Source of the DNA: a virus
Taxonomy: Duplodnaviria > Caudoviricetes
Strand: one strand, 5' to 3'
DNA: 64,000 nucleotides
IMG/VR virus record: IMGVR_UViG_3300011008_000038
Coordinates: 1 to 64,000 of that record
The notes under the pieces were generated by a model that was not told where the DNA came from, made no database searches, and worked only from the letters and a program-made list of their open reading frames with translations. The stretch's first letter is position 1. Every line of letters starts with the position of its first letter. Below, piece by piece: positions 31,394 to 44,669 of this stretch. Made by a program: the position numbers and the translations under genes.

Positions 31394-32790
31394 TTATATA
31401 TCTTCAACTAATGTGTCTGGATCAATGGTTATTAAGTTTATGCTCGAGTCATGTTTAGCCTTCATACCCAAGTTAAGAGAGGTGTATGATAGTTGTATAC
31501 TAAAAAGTCCTGCCATTTGTATATTTAATTTATTGAATAATTCACCTGCACATTTGTTACAAATTTTATCATTCAAACATGTCATTGGTGATCTCATTTC
31601 AACTGTCTTACCAATATATGAATCAATATTTTCCGATGTTAATAATTTTAATTGAGATCCTTCTTTAATGTATGAATACAATAAATCTTTTTTATTTGTT
31701 TTATTTACAGTGATTGGAACTGTTCTTTTTGTTCCACAATCAGTACCAGGTTCATCAACTTGCATCATTTGTAATAAAGCCAATAATTTTTTACCAATAT
31801 AACCTGATTGTCTAACTGCTATACTCATTGGATACTGTGATGCTAATATTGATGCATACTGACTAGGTATATCTTTGATTTCCGATCCTGTCATTAACGA
31901 TGAATCAACAAAATCAAATCTATCATCTATCTTATTCATTACAGGACCTCTCATAATTGCATTATTACGATAATTATTTCCAAAATTAAGGTTACCACTA
32001 AGATATTGATTCATACCAGGATCACCTTCTAATTCTTTTTTGGCATAGTCAATTAATTCATTTACCATTGAAACCATTGCATCAAGATCATGATTATTAA
32101 TTCTTTCACCATATTTTTTCCATAATTCTTTTTTCTTTGCTTCCATTCCTGGTAATGGTTTACTCATCTTTTCACTAATCGTATGGGATAATATACCAAT
32201 TAACCAAAATACCAATGTATCACGATGATTGATATAATCATCAAATTGTGATTTAGTTATGTCATCATTCATTAAGTATTTTCCAATGAGATCATCCAAT
32301 TCTCTTATTTTACTACCAACTGTTTCATTCATATACTTTCTAATTTGAATAGTTCCTGAACCTTGTAATACAAATTTATTGAATATGAATCTACCTATTG
32401 TAGATTCTATTTTTGGTTGTCCGTCGTAAAAATAATTTGCTGGAACTATAAATTTTGACCATGGTTTATATTTACTTTCTTTTCTATTTGCATTTCTACC
32501 ATTGGTAATATCTACAGTTGCAGCAAAAAATTCAACCAACATAGATCTTGTAATATCATCAGGTTCTGTATTTAATAATCTATCAACATCTTCTTTCGAT
32601 GTATCAACTGCTTTTATTTTATCATCAATTTTTGTTAATTCATATGAAGAATCAAATGTGTCGACAATTACGAATTTACCATTAGTACCATTAATGTTTA
32701 AGCCGCTAATTTTTTTATTCATAATTTCTTCACATTCAGCATTTGCTTCATCTGACCAAATACCTCTGACTGATACTGTATCTCCGTCAT
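31394..32790 (-). CDS. rpoC: Multisubunit RNA polymerase beta'-like subunit, exon 2
   Basis: The frame is open upstream of the listed ATG 32722: (T)AT GAC GGA GAT = Y-D-G-D. Bridge helix SGYIGKKLL, DCGT, Zn site RSPMTC...CNKCAG, trigger-loop helix LNLGMKAKH. Confidence 0.9.
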
Positions 32791-34182
32791 TATTTTATAT
32801 TATAAATAAAAATATTACAACACATCTACATATATGTAATCTTAAAAAATTACTGACGAGGAGATGTGTATTAATATGTCATTATCACAATCTAAATTAG
32901 AACGTAATCGTGAATTATTAAAAAATTTTATTTATGATCAACCAATTGATCCTGCTTATAGCATACCATTTGGTTCCAAAGCTTTTGGATGCATATATTG
33001 TATTCTTAATAAAATTAATAAGAAACGCTATATTGGTGCAACATATGCTATATGGGTTGGAACAGCTCATGAAGATCCAATTACACAAATTAAAAAACGT
33101 GCAACTGATTATTTATATGACTACAATAAAGCTATAAGTGAAACTAGTTCATCACAAAAAACTTTAAGACCTATTATAGAAGCTATGGTTAAATATGGAT
33201 TTGAAAATTTTATTATATATCCAATATGTGAAACTACTGAAGATACTCATTATGATTTAGAAAAATATTTTATTAGTTTATATAAAACATTAGATCCAAA
33301 ATTTGGATATAATGTAGTATTTGGTGGAAATAGTATTAGAAAAATTGGAAGTAGAATGACTGCCGATTATAAACGTACTAGATCAGATCCAATTATTTGT
33401 ATTAATCTAAATGAGAAAAAAATTATATTTTCAGAATCTATGAAATTATTTGGTGATTACATGAATTCAAGTAAAGATATGATTAAGAATGTAAATCGTT
33501 CTGCATTATCATATAAGGGTTGGTTTGTATTTTATATTGATAAAGAAAAACGAGATTATATTCTGAATTCACAATATGACCCAAAATTCAATCCAACTAG
33601 AAAACATTCTTCAGAAGCATTAGCTTTTTATACAGGTCTACATAATTCAGTGTCACATTATTTAGATAAAGATGATAAAACAAATAATGAATATTTTTCT
33701 GATTTTGAAGTATTACCAGAATTAAAATATTCAGATTAATATTTTTTATTTAGCTTAATATTTCTATTAAGATTGGACTATCTCTTCATCCTATAATATC
33801 AAATTATAGGAGGTTGGCACTACGAAATATAGTTTTCATTTCCATATTCCTCTCAATTGAAGCAGATTCATTTCTGCTTCAATTTTTTAGTCTCTACATC
33901 TTCTCAATATTTTTTTTAAATATTGAGCTTGACACGGTATTACCAGCTATCTTATAAATAAAATAATTTATAAGACCTCAGGTTCTCTTACGAAGTGTAT
34001 TCGTTTGTTTAAATAGATGAATTGTCATAGGATTCATCCCAACTTATATAACTTCTACCGTTAGCAATATAATCAACTATATATCACACCGCTTGTTAAG
34101 CGTTCACCAACTTTTTCTTATACTGTATTACTACAGTAGATGACCATGACCATTTTCATTGAAACATAGTATCAAGGGGTTT
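32791..34182 (-). mobile_element. Group I intron (IA-like) splitting the RNAP catalytic DxDGD motif
   Basis: IGS GUCAUGGUC (34142-34150) pairs with GACU|AUGAC. GUAA-capped P2; P AAGUUGGUGAA; Q AAUACCGUGUCAAG; R GUAGAGACUA; S GAAGAGAUAGUCC; P9 CUUAAUA-GAAA-UAUUAAG. Removal gives an in-frame 955-aa protein with SGDYDGDT. Confidence 0.92.
32876..33739 (+). CDS. GIY-YIG homing endonuclease encoded antisense inside the RNAP intron
   Basis: FGCIYCILNKINKKRYIG, KKRATDY, AMVKYGFENF, LEKYFI, GYNV match the GIY-YIG catalytic fold; C-terminal NUMOD/IENR-like segment; GAGGAG SD at 32858-32863. Confidence 0.88.
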   Translation: MSLSQSKLERNRELLKNFIYDQPIDPAYSIPFGSKAFGCIYCILNKINKKRYIGATYAIWVGTAHEDPITQIKKRATDYLYDYNKAISETSSSQKTLRPIIEAMVKYGFENFIIYPICETTEDTHYDLEKYFISLYKTLDPKFGYNVVFGGNSIRKIGSRMTADYKRTRSDPIICINLNEKKIIFSESMKLFGDYMNSSKDMIKNVNRSALSYKGWFVFYIDKEKRDYILNSQYDPKFNPTRKHSSEALAFYTGLHNSVSHYLDKDDKTNNEYFSDFEVLPELKYSD

Positions 34183-35653
34183 AGTCGCCTGACATAACTC
34201 GAAGATGAGACGAAGCAACCTTTAAAGTATCAATAAAATATTTTGCGACATCCTCATCTGAAAATTTATAATCTTTTTCTAATCCAAAATATTTTGCAAC
34301 ATCTTCTGGAACATTAACATGTACTTTGGGATAATATTTATATTCTCCTCCATTGTATAAAATATGCTGATGTTCTTTTGTTGTTTCAACATTTATTTTC
34401 GTAAAAAACATACCTTTATCAATTCCAACTGGATATCTAGAAACCATTACATGTCTATTTTTACATGTGTGATAACATGCTAAATACATGACATCACATA
34501 CCGTTAGTGGTCTATTTAATTCTTTATAAACATTATTTGGTAAAATTTCTTTACCTTTAAATCTATAATACACTTCAACAATTTCTTTCTTTCCATTAGC
34601 ATATGTTTTTTGCATTTTCAACATTATTGGATCAAATCTACTATCTGCATTTAGAATGAAATTATTAATCATCTTATTAATATTCTTATCGGAGAATTGT
34701 AATTCTGGATCCACAATTAATCCTTTAACCAATTCTTTTGTTTTCGGGTCAAAAAATTCACTCTCATATTGTTTGTTAATTAAAAATCTCATAAAGAAAT
34801 CTTTAATATAAGCTTTTATGAATGGATGAAATGCAGAAGCACACTGTGAAATTGGAACTGCTGATTCTGCAAGACTTACCATAGAATCTGATATTCTTTC
34901 ATGATTATATGAAGGAGCTGCAATAACTGATCTTACTCCCCAATCTGTTGATTTACCAAGTAATGATCTACGAATAAGTCCTTGTTTAGTTGCCAATAAC
35001 TCTTTAAAATAGTTAAATATATCAACTAACAATGATTGTATTTTTGATTGTGTTGCAAATTGTTTTCTTGCAAATAATCCACCTTGTTGAAGAAGTGCAA
35101 CATTACGAATTACTGATGTGTATAAATTATTTAATTCATTTACATAATCTGAAGAATCTAATGTACCAGAAAGCATGATATCTCTATAAGAAGGTGGACA
35201 AACTAATAGTTTGTTTGTAAATACTAAATCTTTTGGCAATTTTGTAATTAGATCTTTATTAATTGTATCGGCAGATAAACTTACACTCCAATCAATCTTA
35301 TCCCAATTATCATATAAATCATCTAAACCAGTCCACGCATCTGGACCAGAATCTTCTTGGATATAATTATTTTTTATTGAAAATTTTTTCTGTCCTGAAA
35401 CTAAATAAATTATATCTTTAAATAATCTATTCTTCATGACATTTTGATATATGTGTGGATGTAGAAAATGTCTTCTCAAATCAATATATGCATATGTTGA
35501 TAGACGATCAGTTCTACTTAATCCAAATATTGAATTTGATAGAATACCTTCATCATCAAAAGTCATCTTTGTAGAAAACAGATGAGGAGATGATACTTCT
35601 TTTAATGAATTAACATCTACCAATTTATCAATATTTAATATTTCGATTTTCAA
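34183..35653 (-). CDS. rpoC: Multisubunit RNA polymerase beta'-like subunit, exon 1
   Basis: GILSNSIFG, YAYIDL, LVCPPSYRD, GLIRRSLLGKSTDWGVRSVI (beta' region C), SRYP; ends S-G-D-T( ) at the intron. TTG start. Confidence 0.92.
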
Positions 35654-36848: not shown

Positions 36849-39800
36849 TTAATCTAAATCATATTCTTTTTCTCTAATAATAATTCTAGCATTCTTTTCA
36901 ACATTATCAATTCTTAAATAATTTGAATCTGTTATAAAATATGCAGCTTCTGATATATTTGTAACAAATTCTCCATATTCGTTAAACATTCTAACTACGT
37001 ATCCATACCATTCATTATTACCAATGACAGATCTTTCACCTATTACATTATTTTCAATCTCTTCATTCCAAACTTCATTTAACATATCAACTATCATTTC
37101 ATCTGTAATTGGTTTAAATCCAAATTGACTAAATGTCATATTTCTATCAGCAAATGGTTTAGCTTCTAATGTTGGAGTATTTATTATTAAATATTGATAT
37201 GTTGCTTCTGTTATTTGATCCAATGTATCAGTTTCTTCAACTCTAGTAAGTATATCTGTTTCATTATTTGTATTAATCGGATACTGTTTGAATTCTTCAT
37301 TATCAACAGATACTTGTTTCCAAACTGGAGTTAATAAATACTCTTGCTCTTCTAAAGTATAATTATCTCCTTCTAAATTACCTGTTAAAGCATCATCTAA
37401 ATATGTTGTTAGATTATATCTTAAATGAGGTCTATCATATTTTGTGAATTCTACTTCTAAAAAATTATCACTAAAATATTCATTACTATCACGATTAATT
37501 TCAACAATTTCAAAATTACGTAATGATTGTAATCCGTGAAGTATTAATTTAGTTGGAGTTATTATTGTTACTTCGTTATCTAATAATCTACCATTCATCC
37601 AAAACTCATAATATTTTTTATTTAATGGCTTATTCAGTTTTCCAGTTAAATCAATATATCCATTTGAAGGAACTAAATGCTGTGTATAAACTGATCTCAT
37701 TGGATAAGGTACAACATGAAATTCTAATTTATCAAATGCTTTGTATAGATTCAAAAATGTTATATCAGTTCCACTTTCAGTTTCATTTACTAATAATGAT
37801 GGTTTGCCAGTACTTGGATTTACCAGTGGATATCTGCCTTGTTCTGTCATCAAATAAATTCTATCTGAAGGAATTTGATAATCATCAATATGAATCGTTG
37901 GACTCATAATCCAATGGTCATCTATAAATGTATAAACTCTAGAAGTTTTTGATATGATAACTTCATACTCAATTGGCTCATATAAATCATACAGGCAAAC
38001 TATTTTAATTTCTTCTGGTACAGGAGCTAATTTATTTGTTACATTATGAATATATCCATCTCCATAAACTTCTATCTTTTCTGTTACAAATTCAATATTA
38101 ATTCTAGCACATTGTTTTTGAGATTGAGAATCTCTTTGATAACATTCGAATTGTAATGTAATATTTTCTTTAGGCGGATTCACAAAATGTAATGGTTTAA
38201 ATGTTAAAATTCCACTACCATTATTTGACATATCAGCCGTTACTATACCAAATACATGTGTATCATAGAATTGATTATAACACCAAACATTTCCATTTAC
38301 AAATTCATCACCCGTTTTGGCAATAGCACAATTAACTATTTTTGTTTGAGTTTCAAATCCTCTATTAGTAGCTTTATCATCTTTAAATCTAATTTCAAAC
38401 TTAGTTGTATCTGATAAATCTTCAAATCTATTAGCAGATTTATTAAATATTTTAATATCTTCTAAATGAATTTCATTTCTATAGTGCATGTAATTAGCTA
38501 ATTTAAAGTTAATTTCATATCCATAATCATTACCAAGAATGAACGTTTCTCTCTGTTCAAATGGTAATAATTTTCTAATCTTAACTTTATTATTTGTATT
38601 TATTGAAATATTAATCGGATCAGTAATAACTTTATCTATTATTGATGATTTAATACTAATAGTAGCATTACGTTTTAAATTTTCATTTTTCATTTGACTA
38701 TACGCTGATTTGTTTAAATATAGTCTCATATCATAATTATGTATTTCATCATTATGGTATAATAAATCAAATCCATAATCAAATGTTTCCAATGTCCATA
38801 TATTAGTATCTGATAAATTTTCCCATCTTTTCAATGTATAATTATATACACTAAGATCAGATAATTTAATTTGATGAATGTATGAATTGGTATCATAAAA
38901 ATCAACATGAAATTTATTCCATTCATTATCAACAATAATCGGATCATCATAAATATATCTATTCGATCCACTAAATGTTTTGATTCTGTATGCTGTTCTG
39001 TGTCCATCATAATTTGGATCATTTTCAATAATTATCCAATCATTAATATTTCCATCTTCCCATTCATCAGTATCATATGGTAATTTATCAAATACATATC
39101 CATTCATATTACTTCCATTATTACAAATTCTTTCTCTTTTTAAAAATTGAAATTCGTTTTTAAATGATTGATTATTCGGAATTCTATCTTCATATGGAAT
39201 AATTCCATCAATAGGTTCGATAACATTTTCAATTCGATTATATTCATGACCTTTATCGTATGAACTTCCAATCAGCCAGTGAAATGTTGGATCACCGATT
39301 GATTTATTCCAGTCTATTGTTGGATATATAAATGATTTATTTCTGTCACCGATTGCCAAATCATCATATCGTTTTGCTATATATGTATATTCTTCTTTAT
39401 CTGGACCATTTATTGCATATTTGGCAATTCCATCCGAAGTTAATTTATCATAATATCCATTATTATATTCATCATCAATATTATTGACAGAATCTTTTAT
39501 AACTGAACCAGCTATAATCGCAGGATTAGTTTTTTCAACCACAATTGATGTATCATCCGTATCTAATGATTTAATTCCTTTAAATGGAGTAGAATCTAAT
39601 TCTGATACTATTGCTTTCACATATGATTCAGATCCATCTATAAAAATATCTTGTCCAGTTGAATATCCTGCTCCTGGATCTATAATTGTAAAATCATTTA
39701 TTTTATAAATAAAATAATCTTTTCCTGGAATATAAATTGAATTATTCTTGATATTCATTATTTTATTAGCTTTTATATAAATTTTATCTTTATTATCAGC

Positions 39801-42800
39801 ATGACGAATTATAAAATCAGATGTTTGTTTTCCTCCAATAAATACTTCATATGAAGTATTCAAATCATATGTATTATTTAAATCAAATCTAACTAAATCA
39901 GATTCATTATATTGATCATTAATATATTCATCGGAAGATTCATCCCATAATAACGTAAATAAGGATGATGTGATTTTTGATGATGAAATATTAACCATTA
40001 ATTTTTTACCATTTCCAACTCTTGCTATAGTTTTGTATGATCCTGAAAGTTGATTTGGTAATGCATAATTCATAATTGGAGCTACCGAAATAACTTCTCC
40101 ATTGGTATCGATTTTTCTAACTTGATATAATATTATATCATTCTCGTAATCTAATTGAACGATATCACCAATTTTATATCCTGATCCACTATTTCCAATT
40201 GTTGAAGATTTAATATAATAATAAGGATTTAATAATTCAAACAAATCAGAATTTTTTTCTATATCTCTATTTATTTTATCAATCTGATTTAATATCGGAT
40301 TATATTCTTTTGACAATAATGGAATATTATTTATCACATATTCAATACTATTAATAATAGAATTGAATAAATTATCAAATTCATCTTTATGTAAATCTTC
40401 AATATCCCAATTATAATAAATACGTAATTCATATGTAATATCTTTCAATATTGATATTAATTCTTCTCCATTACTCCAATCAGTTCCATTATTGTAAAAA
40501 TTACTTAAATTAGAATAATTATTTAAAAATCTCTCATGATAAAAATTATATTCCACAGTAGTTTTATTATTAGTTTTAGCATACTCATAACTATCAGTAA
40601 CCAATGATTCAATATTTGTTATGATACTATCAACATCAATATTATTTCTAATATCAATATATGTGTTACACAATCTATTTATTCTTTCCAATGATCTAAA
40701 TAATGTATCAACATAATCTACAGTATCCTGTTGAATATGATTTACACATTTCTCTTTAATAATATCCCATTTATTTTTTATTACTGAAATTGAATTAAGT
40801 ATAGATTCCAAATGTTTATTATTATATCGATTTGGATTTGAAAGATTCTTACCAATTTGATTTAATATATTAATAATCTCACTAATATATGATTTAGCAA
40901 GACTATCGTCTGTATAATAAATATGCTCAACTGATAATGGTTTTACTAATATTCCAATACCATCACCATTTGTAATTCCTTCAAACAAATTTAAATTATC
41001 TTTAGGATTTAACAATTGCCAATTATAATAATTCAATGATTCAATTGTAGTAGCTCTTTGTATATTATCACTTACTTCAGTAATTCTATAAAAACCTAAA
41101 TTTGGAATAAATAATTCGTCACCAAATTTATGTAGTACTCCACCGCTAACTATTTCAATATCATTTATTTTATAAAAGTCACTATAATTTGGATGAGTAT
41201 TAACTTCAAAAAATTCTTCATTAACTCTATTAAGATAATTAGCTAAGCTAATCAAAATATCATGATATGGTATTACATATGTAACAAACACATTAGTATC
41301 ATTACTAATGGAATATATCCTATCAAATACTTCAAATTCATGATTAATAAATTCTTTCCATTTATTAGATTCACTGATAGCATTTAATAATTCAGAGTTA
41401 GACCTTACACTATTATTTTTCCCAGCTATATATGATACATAATACAATATCTTATCAATATAATTTCTAATATTATTATCAAATTCTTTTTCAGTATTTC
41501 CTAAATATAATGATTCAAATTCTTCCAAGATTGAATATACTAAATTAAATGAATCTATTAATTTAATTCTAGCTTCCATATATCTTTCAATATTGAATTG
41601 TAATAAATTAATAACATCATATGCATTGTCTAATTTTGTTAAGAGATCTTTATCTTCTTTTTGATCAAAATATATCCAATATTTATTAATTTCTTTTGAT
41701 AAATTATTTAAATCATTTTTAACTTCTGATACTGTATCAATGAAATCATTAATTTCTTCTTCTGTATATGATTTATCTGGATCAAATTTTGCATGTAATA
41801 AAGATGTTGATTTGAATAATTTAGTACGTTTTTCTTTCACATCATGACCCCATGAATTTTCAAATTGGTTTATATATCCAATTAATGAAATATCATTTTC
41901 GCCAGTTTCTTTATTATAAACTTTATAAACACTTAATTCATTCATAATTCTCATAAAGTTATCAATATCGAAATTATTCATTATACTACAAATATTATCA
42001 ACTTCATACGATACTTTATTCTCCAATGCAATTTGTAATCTATCCTGAATATCTTTTTTATTCTCACAAACATCTTTACTTACAGAATCATTATGAATAT
42101 CAGATAATAAAGTATTAATATCATTTACCAATGCTTCATGTATTTTAATGGAATTTATTAATGAATTAATTTCTTCATGTCCATAAATTGCTAAGTCCAA
42201 TTTATTAATATCATTTAACAATTTATCAGAATTAGATTGTATTATTGATAAATTATTTTTTAATCTAGTATAAAATTCAATAATTAAATCATAATCTTCA
42301 ATTAATAAATTATTTAGTATCCAATCAACATCAATTTCAAGATTTCCTATATGATTTTTAATATCATTTTGTAAATTAAAAATTATTGGTATAATTCTTT
42401 CAATATCAAATGAATAGTCCGGTCTATATAAAACATTTTCTTCAATAATTTTATTTGTATCTTGTAATGTAAATTCTGAATCAAAATACTGAGGACTCCA
42501 TGTCTTATATAGATAATTTTCATATGCTGTTATTTTTTTATAATTCATAAAATTACTATTAATAGCTTCATTCATTTTATCTACTGAATAATCAAAAGGA
42601 AATTCATTATTCGATGATTTTAAATAAGTAGCTAAACCCATTTTAAAATAAGGATCTGATGATTGAATAAATAATTGATTAAATCGATTATATGATTTAT
42701 TATCTATAATATATTCAATAGCTTCCCACCGATATTTTGTATTTAATATTCCTTTATAGATTGAACGTACTCCTAGCCAATAAAATTTCTCCATAAATAT

Positions 42801-44669
42801 ATCTTGATAATTTCCTCGTTTATCAATTTCATATTTTAAAACATCATCATTCCATGAAGGTGAAGATTTTTCAATTTCTGTTGATATGTCTAATTCATTA
42901 ATAGTATCTGAATAAAAGAAAAATGTTTTAAATATTCTATTAACAATTTCTTTAGATTCATCTGATTCTGTTGGGATATATACATCAGGAAAATGATGTT
43001 CTATATTCAATGGATATGGTTTCCAAACCTTATTATCAAAATCATATTCAAATGTCCAGAAATCTGTTGATTCTATTGGTCTTCTAAATCTTAATTGATG
43101 AGATAATTCTTGTATATTTTCCCATTGAATAAATCTATTTTTAACTTGACCAATTAATTGTGAAATATAATATTTATCAACCAATAATCTTGGAATATAA
43201 ATTATTGGACTAAATTTATGAAAAAAATTTCTATTACTATTTGATTTTGTTAATAACCATTCTGAATTATCTTGTTTTATTTCCAATGATTTAATTATTT
43301 CTAAATATAAATCAAATAAATCATTATATTCAACATCAAGATCCATTTGATGTTTGTATAAAAAATCATTGTATAATTCTTTTACAATATTTCCACATGT
43401 TTTTAGTATATCACATTGATCAATAAATTCTTCAGATGTATGAGATGATTTTAAAAAGAATCTAAAATTTTCATAAGAGTTTGCTAATTCAACAGTAGCA
43501 TCTCTTAATGGTTTCAATTCAATTTCTAATTTATCATACATTTCAATTTCAGGTGAATTGAACGAATCTGACAAAACAATTGGTCTTATCATTGTTTTCC
43601 ATTCAGATTCTACATTTTCATCACCCGATCCAATATCCGCATATACTTGTTTTAATTCTCCTTCAGATGTTTTTACAAAGAAAGCTTGTTGATTTTTCAA
43701 TACAGCTACTCGATCCATATTTGATGAATATGATCTATAAATTACATCTGTTGGTAATAGGATTGGATATTCGTGAAAATATTTTGGAACAATAATACTC
43801 ATATATATCCATTCTCGTGGTTCTGAATAAATTATATTCTTATTTCTTTCACTAATATTATCTAAATTGATATACCAATTATCATTAACAGATAAAAATT
43901 CAATATTCTCTCCTATAACATCTACTGTTTTATTATCATTTCTACCTTCTTGAATCCTATTAAATGTACAAATAAAATGTTTATCTTTTAATACTCTTTG
44001 ATCCTCAATATATTCTGCTGGAATTCTCCACTTCCACTGATTTAATACTAATTCATTTGTAATCTTAATTCTACATTGAGCTATTGTATCAAATTTATAA
44101 ATATAAATAGGATAATTATTTTTTAACCATCTTTCATTAAATTTAAATTCTAAAATAGTTTCTCTATCATCAATTCTAATTTTATATTCAGAATAAATTC
44201 GTTGGTTGATGAATAATAAGATAGCAAAATGAAATACATCATAATTATTCAATATTTCAGTAATATCAATCCATTTACGAAAATATTGTTTTAATTTAAA
44301 ATTATTTCTATCTGATACATTTAAAATACTCTCAGTATTAATTCTAACTTGACATGTTGATGTATTTGATAATATTGTAACATCACTCATATGTCCAAAC
44401 CAACTATAGAAATTTACATTAGCATGATTAGAAGCTTTTAATTTATTTGAATTATTAAAATATAATTCATTTAGTGATTCATTTAACAATTCTTCATTAA
44501 ATGAATTATTCAATATAGCTTCATTTCTAATAATTGATGATCTACTACCATCGCTATCGGGTAAAACATATCCTTCTTTAGTTAAATTATCTTTATAATC
44601 ATTAACATCTGATGTATTTGGAAAATCATCATGATGATTATTATTATCATTGGGAAACATTGTTTTCAT
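36849..44669 (-). CDS. Very large putative virion structural (baseplate/tail) protein
   Basis: 2606 aa; GxGYxxG(D/Q) repeats (GNSGSGYKIGD, DPGAGYSTGQ, SGGVLHKFGD), long helical middle region, beta-rich ends. Function is inferred. Confidence 0.6.
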   Translation of the reverse strand: MKTMFPNDNNNHHDDFPNTSDVNDYKDNLTKEGYVLPDSDGSRSSIIRNEAILNNSFNEELLNESLNELYFNNSNKLKASNHANVNFYSWFGHMSDVTILSNTSTCQVRINTESILNVSDRNNFKLKQYFRKWIDITEILNNYDVFHFAILLFINQRIYSEYKIRIDDRETILEFKFNERWLKNNYPIYIYKFDTIAQCRIKITNELVLNQWKWRIPAEYIEDQRVLKDKHFICTFNRIQEGRNDNKTVDVIGENIEFLSVNDNWYINLDNISERNKNIIYSEPREWIYMSIIVPKYFHEYPILLPTDVIYRSYSSNMDRVAVLKNQQAFFVKTSEGELKQVYADIGSGDENVESEWKTMIRPIVLSDSFNSPEIEMYDKLEIELKPLRDATVELANSYENFRFFLKSSHTSEEFIDQCDILKTCGNIVKELYNDFLYKHQMDLDVEYNDLFDLYLEIIKSLEIKQDNSEWLLTKSNSNRNFFHKFSPIIYIPRLLVDKYYISQLIGQVKNRFIQWENIQELSHQLRFRRPIESTDFWTFEYDFDNKVWKPYPLNIEHHFPDVYIPTESDESKEIVNRIFKTFFFYSDTINELDISTEIEKSSPSWNDDVLKYEIDKRGNYQDIFMEKFYWLGVRSIYKGILNTKYRWEAIEYIIDNKSYNRFNQLFIQSSDPYFKMGLATYLKSSNNEFPFDYSVDKMNEAINSNFMNYKKITAYENYLYKTWSPQYFDSEFTLQDTNKIIEENVLYRPDYSFDIERIIPIIFNLQNDIKNHIGNLEIDVDWILNNLLIEDYDLIIEFYTRLKNNLSIIQSNSDKLLNDINKLDLAIYGHEEINSLINSIKIHEALVNDINTLLSDIHNDSVSKDVCENKKDIQDRLQIALENKVSYEVDNICSIMNNFDIDNFMRIMNELSVYKVYNKETGENDISLIGYINQFENSWGHDVKEKRTKLFKSTSLLHAKFDPDKSYTEEEINDFIDTVSEVKNDLNNLSKEINKYWIYFDQKEDKDLLTKLDNAYDVINLLQFNIERYMEARIKLIDSFNLVYSILEEFESLYLGNTEKEFDNNIRNYIDKILYYVSYIAGKNNSVRSNSELLNAISESNKWKEFINHEFEVFDRIYSISNDTNVFVTYVIPYHDILISLANYLNRVNEEFFEVNTHPNYSDFYKINDIEIVSGGVLHKFGDELFIPNLGFYRITEVSDNIQRATTIESLNYYNWQLLNPKDNLNLFEGITNGDGIGILVKPLSVEHIYYTDDSLAKSYISEIINILNQIGKNLSNPNRYNNKHLESILNSISVIKNKWDIIKEKCVNHIQQDTVDYVDTLFRSLERINRLCNTYIDIRNNIDVDSIITNIESLVTDSYEYAKTNNKTTVEYNFYHERFLNNYSNLSNFYNNGTDWSNGEELISILKDITYELRIYYNWDIEDLHKDEFDNLFNSIINSIEYVINNIPLLSKEYNPILNQIDKINRDIEKNSDLFELLNPYYYIKSSTIGNSGSGYKIGDIVQLDYENDIILYQVRKIDTNGEVISVAPIMNYALPNQLSGSYKTIARVGNGKKLMVNISSSKITSSLFTLLWDESSDEYINDQYNESDLVRFDLNNTYDLNTSYEVFIGGKQTSDFIIRHADNKDKIYIKANKIMNIKNNSIYIPGKDYFIYKINDFTIIDPGAGYSTGQDIFIDGSESYVKAIVSELDSTPFKGIKSLDTDDTSIVVEKTNPAIIAGSVIKDSVNNIDDEYNNGYYDKLTSDGIAKYAINGPDKEEYTYIAKRYDDLAIGDRNKSFIYPTIDWNKSIGDPTFHWLIGSSYDKGHEYNRIENVIEPIDGIIPYEDRIPNNQSFKNEFQFLKRERICNNGSNMNGYVFDKLPYDTDEWEDGNINDWIIIENDPNYDGHRTAYRIKTFSGSNRYIYDDPIIVDNEWNKFHVDFYDTNSYIHQIKLSDLSVYNYTLKRWENLSDTNIWTLETFDYGFDLLYHNDEIHNYDMRLYLNKSAYSQMKNENLKRNATISIKSSIIDKVITDPINISINTNNKVKIRKLLPFEQRETFILGNDYGYEINFKLANYMHYRNEIHLEDIKIFNKSANRFEDLSDTTKFEIRFKDDKATNRGFETQTKIVNCAIAKTGDEFVNGNVWCYNQFYDTHVFGIVTADMSNNGSGILTFKPLHFVNPPKENITLQFECYQRDSQSQKQCARINIEFVTEKIEVYGDGYIHNVTNKLAPVPEEIKIVCLYDLYEPIEYEVIISKTSRVYTFIDDHWIMSPTIHIDDYQIPSDRIYLMTEQGRYPLVNPSTGKPSLLVNETESGTDITFLNLYKAFDKLEFHVVPYPMRSVYTQHLVPSNGYIDLTGKLNKPLNKKYYEFWMNGRLLDNEVTIITPTKLILHGLQSLRNFEIVEINRDSNEYFSDNFLEVEFTKYDRPHLRYNLTTYLDDALTGNLEGDNYTLEEQEYLLTPVWKQVSVDNEEFKQYPINTNNETDILTRVEETDTLDQITEATYQYLIINTPTLEAKPFADRNMTFSQFGFKPITDEMIVDMLNEVWNEEIENNVIGERSVIGNNEWYGYVVRMFNEYGEFVTNISEAAYFITDSNYLRIDNVEKNARIIIREKEYDLD

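Follow-up and report, generated by a model that had tools for sequence, protein, structure and literature searches.

Can a group I intron that interrupts the catalytic motif of an RNA polymerase gene end in adenosine? Few features of group I introns are as conserved as the terminal guanosine (omega-G), to which the textbook account of the second splicing step gives a central role. The question is raised by a split gene on the minus strand of the window (the whole 64,000-nt stretch of viral DNA analysed here), which has a GC content of 26% and is part of an 86.9-kb IMG/VR record estimated to be 32% complete. The explanation that best fits the locus as a whole, held here with reasonable confidence, is that the insertion is a true, mobile IA-type group I intron in the virion RNAP beta' gene of an uncultured, AT-rich giant phage of the AR9/PBS1-like kind, and that it splices at A32791 with P10 choosing the 3' site.

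The two exons of the gene are as follows.

34183..35653, minus strand: exon 1 of fused virion-RNAP beta', 490 codons plus U (the first base of a Tyr codon), from translation
31394..32790, minus strand: exon 2, in which AU finishes the Tyr codon and D-G-D-T-V-S... follows, with 464 codons to the stop

By homology, the split gene is a fused virion-RNAP beta' of the AR9 g145 plus g264 type, since its best cultured matches are these two genes, both annotated as virion RNAP parts. Exon 1 matches the profile phrog_2986 (E 2e-62) and, among cultured phages, is closest to AR9 g145 (beta' N part), while exon 2 matches phrog_2962 (E 1.6e-51) and is closest to AR9 g264 (beta' C part); both profiles are pieces of jumbo-phage RNAP beta'. 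Exon 1 finishes in ...UCA GGC GAC U (protein ...V-M-S-G-D plus U), and its unspliced frame (35653-34184, minus strand) hits a stop directly (GGC GAC UAA). Exon 2 begins with AU GAC GGA GAU at 32790, the D-G-D-T-V-S frame running from 32788. The joined product has the 955 residues (490 + 1 + 464 codons) given in the initial annotation of this DNA; it is homologous to both halves of beta', and its spliced Mg site reads S-G-D-Y-D-G-D. That annotation had recognized an RNA polymerase and left its type unspecified; the polymerase stands and can now be named as a homologue of virion RNAP beta' (AR9 g145/g264). Assignment of the split gene to a non-virion RNAP is ruled out by the annotation of AR9, which is for the virion enzyme. 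In the clade of the window, beta' is one 955-aa protein (31394-35653, minus strand), and a single protein is also found in Fusobacterium phages; by contrast, AR9 and the phiKZ-like phages encode beta' in two distant genes, split after the double-psi beta-barrel. An ORF of 2,606 codons (36849-44669, minus strand) lies just upstream of the polymerase gene.

The intron boundary is narrowly constrained by the coding sequence (a slash within nucleotide letters marks a splice junction below). The bases right after exon 1 are AAACCCC..., and the intron 3' end reads ...AUAUAAAAUA, finishing at 32791 (minus strand). Because an in-frame UAA stands three codons upstream of GAC GGA GAU, only three joins restore D-x-D-G-D: GAC/AAU (omega U), GACU/AU (omega A) and GACUA/U (omega A). 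Thirteen intron-less orthologues are available for comparison. Fusobacterium phage JD-Fnp1 has an uninterrupted gene that reads G-D-L-D-G-D, and the uninterrupted genes of 12 distinct metagenomic contigs (labels L005, L006, L009, L010, L015, L018, L025, L027, L031, L036, L037 and L039-L042) read G-(A/G)-D-Y/F-D-G-D. In all 13, a single codon (Y, F or L) separates the exon matches; thus, no join that restores D-x-D-G-D is compatible with a final intron G, the three options being U, A and A.

The choice among these joins is made by the internal guide sequence, listed here with the last intron base and the nearest G.

32791, minus strand: omega (last intron nucleotide), A, read from the sequence; G-ending sister introns have G exactly here
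34142..34150, minus strand: internal guide sequence GUCAU-GGUC (5'-GUCAUGGUC-3'), at the same position relative to P2 in all relatives
32788, minus strand: nearest G, the third base of exon 2; cryptic splicing at this point would yield G-D-Y-G-D, with one catalytic Asp lost

The junction GACU/...A/AUGAC is selected because the guide pairs with both of its sides. In P1, the guide half GGUC (34142-34145) forms 4 bp with exon GACU, including a U34183.G wobble at the 5' splice site; in P10, which is contiguous with P1, GUCAU (34146-34150) forms 5 bp with AUGAC of exon 2. The guide therefore pairs 9/9 across the junction, a pairing that is equalled in length in 117 of 5000 shuffles (2.3%) of the first 110 intron bases. 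It lies just 5' of P2, in the homologous place, in 12/12 relatives. The P1 of the window has 4 contiguous bp, a mismatch and then 3 bp, while most relatives have 7 contiguous bp. Re-reading of the sequence agrees with the initial annotation that P1 and P10 point to the same site with U.G at the junction, that omega is A even after a 1-nt shift of the boundary (GACU/AU and GACUA/U alike), and that the nearest G, at +3, is in frame and would yield D-Y-G-D; the comparison of intron-bearing with the 13 intron-less orthologues supports the junction that it proposed.

The inserted element has the following parts outside of the guide.

32791..34182, minus strand: group I intron of 1,392 nt, with a partial match to Rfam RF00028 and a core homologous to 12 same-site introns
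34121..34139, minus strand: P2 hairpin CUACUGUA-GUAA-UACAGUA, every pair of which has compensatory changes across the family
34105..34111, minus strand: P3 5' strand GUUGGUG, which pairs with 33813-33820; 4/7 pairs have compensatory changes in the family
33888..33897, minus strand: J6/7 and P7 5' strand GUAGAGACUA, which includes a bulged A and contributes the G to the G-C pair that binds guanosine (G-A-GACUA)
33790..33810, minus strand: P8 hairpin, from the Rfam alignment and the family fold
33775..33789, minus strand: J8/7 and P7 3' strand AUGAAGAGAUAGUCC, with a high posterior probability in the alignment to the Rfam consensus and conserved in the family; the P7 3' strand UAGUCC is at 33775-33780
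33754..33771, minus strand: P9 hairpin CUUAAUA-GAAA-UAUUAAG, present only in the window and L002

That a group I intron interrupts the Mg-binding motif of the polymerase, as first annotated, is borne out by core motifs, covariation and the Rfam match (E 2.7e-8). The expected alignment to a group I model is obtained in part: RF00028 aligns over P8, J8/7, P7' and P9, at 40 bits, which is below the gathering score of 50. This score is reached by 0/7 relatives scanned, G-ending ones included, and the 329-nt intron L026 gives no RF00028 match even at E 0.01. The general Rfam group I model is insensitive to this intron subfamily; thus, group I membership rests on core motifs and covariation. The motifs GUAGAGACUA (J6/7-P7) and GAAGAKAUAGUCC (J8/7-P7') are invariant in 12/12 aligned same-site introns, whether A- or G-ending, and include the canonical G-binding pair of P7 that had been noted for the window. 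RNAalifold on the 12 same-site introns recovers P2, P3, P4-P6 and P8, with compensatory changes in 34/56 predicted pairs. The window intron has a P1 with U.G wobble, a P10 and a conserved core (P3-P8 pseudoknot, P4-P6, P7 and J8/7), and lacks the terminal guanosine and a gathering-level RF00028 score. Absence of omega-G does not exclude group I membership because published group I introns without it exist. Helices between P7 and P3' point to an IA-type intron. A helix closing the endonuclease insert (post-P9 with the 3' tail) was sought, and the best duplex (-16 kcal/mol) is matched by 11% of shuffles, which is not significant in AT-rich sequence.

The initial annotation treated omega-A as a single oddity, a view that does not hold once relatives are considered. 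About 80 proteins related to exon 1 end inside or just after ...G-M-G-(A/G/E)-D in a protein search, which marks the motif as an intron hot spot. The census drawn from this motif covers about 22 related introns at loci from IMG/VR and metagenomes. Among them are 13 same-site family introns, of which nine end in G (L002, L007, L008, L011, L014, L020, L029, L034 and L035, with L002 shifted by 1 nt) and four in A. Related introns occupy the analogous position of a paralogous beta' gene (phrog_2987, N-A-D/F-D-G-D), and six of these end in G. The A-ending introns are as follows.

Window: omega A, ..AAAAUA/AUGAC
L026: omega A, ..UUUACAA/AUGAC; 329 nt, endonuclease gene absent
L028: omega A, ..UCCACA/UUGAC; the boundary cannot shift at all
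L033: omega A, ..UCCAAA/UUGAC
L050=L087: omega A, ..GCACA/UUUGAU; paralogous beta' gene
L090: omega A, paralogous beta' gene

Omega-A thus occurs in five independent lineages (window, L026, L028 with L033, L050=L087, and L090), which amount to about a quarter of family members and retain an unchanged G-binding pocket; most of the approximately 22 introns end in G, and none ends in C or U. In a maximum-likelihood core tree of the same-site introns, the omega state changes at least three times. Sister pairs with near-identical cores differ at omega, as in L028 (A) versus L029 (G) and L033 (A) versus L034 (G), with L028 and L033 also differing from these G-ending core sisters in the 3' tail. Apparent plain G-to-A transitions separate L026 (..UUUACAA/) from L029 (..UUUACAG/), L050 (..CACA/) from L067 (..CACG/), and the window (..AAAAUA/AUGAC) from L008 (..AAAAAG/AUGAC). 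In the host genes of the omega-A introns, the frames flanking the intron stay open for about 470-490 and 461-464 codons. No compensation for omega-A is apparent in the core: omega-A sisters keep the same canonical G-binding P7 as the G-ending ones, P7 and J8/7 do not differ between members that end in A and those that end in G, and no core position tracks omega among the 12 aligned introns. The P10 of A-ending members is likewise no longer than that of G-ending ones, in same-site and paralogous introns.

A pathway consistent with these features would begin on the minus-strand pre-mRNA with formation of P1 between exon GACU and guide GGUC, with a U.G pair at the cleavage point. The canonical P7 pocket would hold an exogenous G, and this G would cleave after U34183; the 5' half of the guide (GUCAU) would then pair with AUGAC of exon 2 to form P10, and the exons would be ligated across A32791/A32790 to restore GAC-UAU-GAC-GGA-GAU. 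The leaving base of the second step would be A, not G. Splicing at A is inferred, as is its efficiency; P10 would be the main determinant of the 3' site, and the rate would probably suffer somewhat. For the family, the most likely reading is tolerance of A at omega with the 3' site set by P10, omega-A being a tolerated, recurrent state that would arise by G-to-A transitions. With somewhat less assurance than attaches to the locus as a whole, the family is proposed to ligate accurately with either purine at omega, the 3' choice depending on P10 and peripheral contacts and not on guanosine binding. Relaxed selection combined with a strong G-to-A mutational bias of these very AT-rich genomes would suffice for the omega pattern. 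A protein helper for omega-A splicing, raised in the initial annotation, is a purely hypothetical possibility.

Three other explanations bear on this proposal. The A at 32791 may be an assembly or sequencing error, or a minority variant, with the real intron ending in G. The window is a single metagenomic contig, and no second assembly covering its junction was found in IMG/VR, so that its A rests on one assembly; moreover, a single transition would turn ..AAAAUA/ canonical, as in sister L008 (..AAAAAG/AUGAC). Recurrence of omega-A in five independent lineages of the same intron family nevertheless makes an assembly error unlikely and points to a tolerated natural state: the four other lineages come from different assemblies and pipelines, and one of them is confirmed by two assemblies (L050 and L087) from different metagenomes that are identical over 985 nt. 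An error that hits exactly this one base of 64 kb is also improbable, and an artefact of this kind is very unlikely overall. The omega-A intron instead appears, from the comparison of relatives, to be a real, recurrent natural exception with published precedents. A less remote but still unlikely alternative is that the G-to-A change crippled ligation, leaving beta' non-functional or very poorly expressed, so that the phages are defective or persist because co-infecting relatives, G-ending or intron-less, complement them or recombine with them. In model ribozymes the terminal G matters for the second step, the G-binding site has no compensating change, and the family recombines readily, the window intron itself appearing to be a mosaic. 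On the other side, the five independent lineages have long intact frames on both sides of the intron, omega-A contigs reach 265 kb and represent the dominant genotype of each assembly, and omega is a purine only, C and U being absent, which is the pattern predicted for introns that still function. The combination of five lineages, intact hosts and purine-only omega fits poorly with a dead intron in an essential gene, and natural omega-A introns elsewhere do splice (PMC6545197).

The least probable of the alternatives, marginally below an assembly error, is that splicing occurs mainly at the +3 G (AUG/AC), yielding a beta' that lacks one catalytic Asp and making splice-site choice a switch between dead and active polymerase, as the initial annotation had suggested. 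Loss of the terminal G could in principle redirect a ribozyme to a nearby G, and the one at +3 could be used without a frameshift; the join would read ...GGCGACU + ACGGAGAU, compared with ...GGCGACU + AUGACGGAGAU for splicing at A. The switch is nonetheless disfavoured. The +3 G leaves only 1 bp of P10 with the guide, compared to 5 bp at the A site, and the G-ending sisters L008 and L014 have the same exon and the same +3 G, which is part of conserved codons. The D-Y-G-D product would also miss the universal three-Asp Mg site, and no orthologue has D-Y-G-D.

Splicing at A32791, as preferred here, can be set beside known systems. The G-ending sisters share with the window a common ribozyme family, an antisense GIY-YIG gene and the guide position, and they have U.G at the 5' site as the window does, L002 excepted (C-G, shifted by 1 nt). 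In L008 and L014, even the AUGAC 3' exon and the GUCAU guide are identical to those of the window, but the intron ends in G. Among cultured phages, the annotated jumbo phage AR9 (the window phage is uncultured) has two introns in g145, the second of which, a group I intron that encodes a homing endonuclease, interrupts the orthologous gene within this catalytic Asp motif; thus, introns in jumbo-phage RNAP genes were already known. The second AR9 intron differs in being inserted 5 nt further downstream (GAC UAC GAU/.../GGU GAU) and in ending in G (..UUUUG/), and its endonuclease (g146) is Hef-like and encoded on the sense strand, whereas that of the window is an antisense GIY-YIG. In phage T4, the td intron with I-TevI also belongs to group IA, interrupts an essential enzyme gene and encodes a GIY-YIG homing endonuclease; in contrast to that of the window, this endonuclease gene has the sense orientation and occupies a peripheral loop, and the last intron base is G.

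Group I introns without a terminal G are a rare but already documented kind. In hexacoral ND5-717, the terminal G is absent and the exons are perfectly ligated in vivo (PMC6545197). Unlike the window intron, ND5-717 is mitochondrial, strictly vertical, giant, back- or trans-spliced in some taxa, without a homing endonuclease and unrelated in sequence. The initial annotation had named hexacoral mitochondria as the source of the rare omega-A cases, which is correct but too narrow: a Coxiella burnetii 23S rRNA group I intron without canonical omega-G, one of the two Coxiella 23S introns, is described as self-splicing in the title of a paper cited in PMC3428280 (Raghavan et al. 2007, J Bacteriol 189:6572). 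The Coxiella intron, by that title, is in a bacterial rRNA gene, while that of the window is in a phage protein-coding gene. A limited literature search found no paper on omega-A introns in phages. The added value of the present family is its omega-A frequency and its natural A/G sister pairs. Repeated replacement of the terminal guanosine by A in an essential catalytic motif, with the pocket unchanged, suggests that natural introns depend on this G less strictly than model ribozymes imply. If true, the natural sisters (L028/L029, L033/L034 and the 329-nt L026) make the second-step role of omega-G directly testable. Intron-detection pipelines and databases that demand canonical ends or a gathering-score match would miss or mis-annotate such introns, and essential phage genes would be called 'split' or 'truncated'.

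The intron also includes an endonuclease gene on the opposite strand.

32864..33739, plus strand: GIY-YIG homing endonuclease gene, ORF of 291 aa, antisense, from translation and PHROG

This ORF is located between P9 and the last 73 nt of the intron and probably starts at its second ATG (32876), downstream of a GAGGAGA ribosome-binding site. Its PHROG matches are homing-endonuclease families (E 1.9e-13 to 7e-9), its Pfam GIY-YIG match (PF01541) is 20.7 bits, just under the 22.6 cut-off, and residues 43-60 form the GIY-YIG module CIYCI...RYIGAT of such enzymes. Antisense orthologues of 282-291 aa are found in the same place in 10/11 other HEG-bearing relatives, and the eleventh (L035) is truncated to 228 aa. 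In every HEG-bearing member (window, L002, L007, L008, L011, L014, L020, L028, L029, L033, L034 and L035), the GIY-YIG gene is opposite to the host-gene strand, directly after P7'/P9. The endonuclease is proposed to spread the intron into intron-less alleles. Being antisense, the gene must be transcribed from a promoter of its own, into an mRNA complementary to the intron RNA. The 3' tail was considered as an AR9-type early promoter for the endonuclease; the plus strand reads TATTTTATATTAT from 32791, and the annotated early promoters of AR9 read AAATATATATTAT. A relaxed motif occurs 5 times in the window versus 4 expected, and this promoter assignment is unsupported.

Similarity of the window intron to its relatives is patchy. 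The P1-P2 region is similar to that of L008, with an identical P2, while identity to L002 is 91% in P6-P9, 29% in P1-P2 and 48% in the 3' tail, and about 76% in the flanking exons. This pattern suggests a mosaic formed by recombination between intron variants. The closest intron relative, L002 (7465-7490, 8825-8845), is inserted 1 nt upstream (GAC/...CCAG/UAC), and the base before its 5' splice site is a C, paired as C-G with the guide (GUGAC with GUCAC) in place of the usual U.G wobble. The closest protein relative, P0005 (77% identity), ends in ...SGDNSH, which suggests a second case of the L002-type 5' splice site. An inverted repeat (AUCUCC...GGAGAU) surrounds the 3' splice site in L002 (8822-8850), L028 and L033 and is absent in the window; in this repeat the intron tail is complementary to the exon 2 G-D codons, and the resulting hairpin of 6-7 bp has the splice site in its loop.

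Other introns are also found in the beta' Asp motif. With the loci L013/L030/L032, L017/L021/L038 and AR9 (L106) included, a stretch of about 20 nt contains five or more insertion points (after AUGGGU, GGU-G, GAY, GAY-U and, in AR9, GAC-UAC-GAU), and the ribozymes are of at least three types. In L033 (4893-6349) and L034 (2303-3776), two different group I introns lie in the motif with a 7-nt mini-exon (GGUGACU) between them: a short L013-type intron follows AUG GGU/, and the family intron starts 7 nt later.
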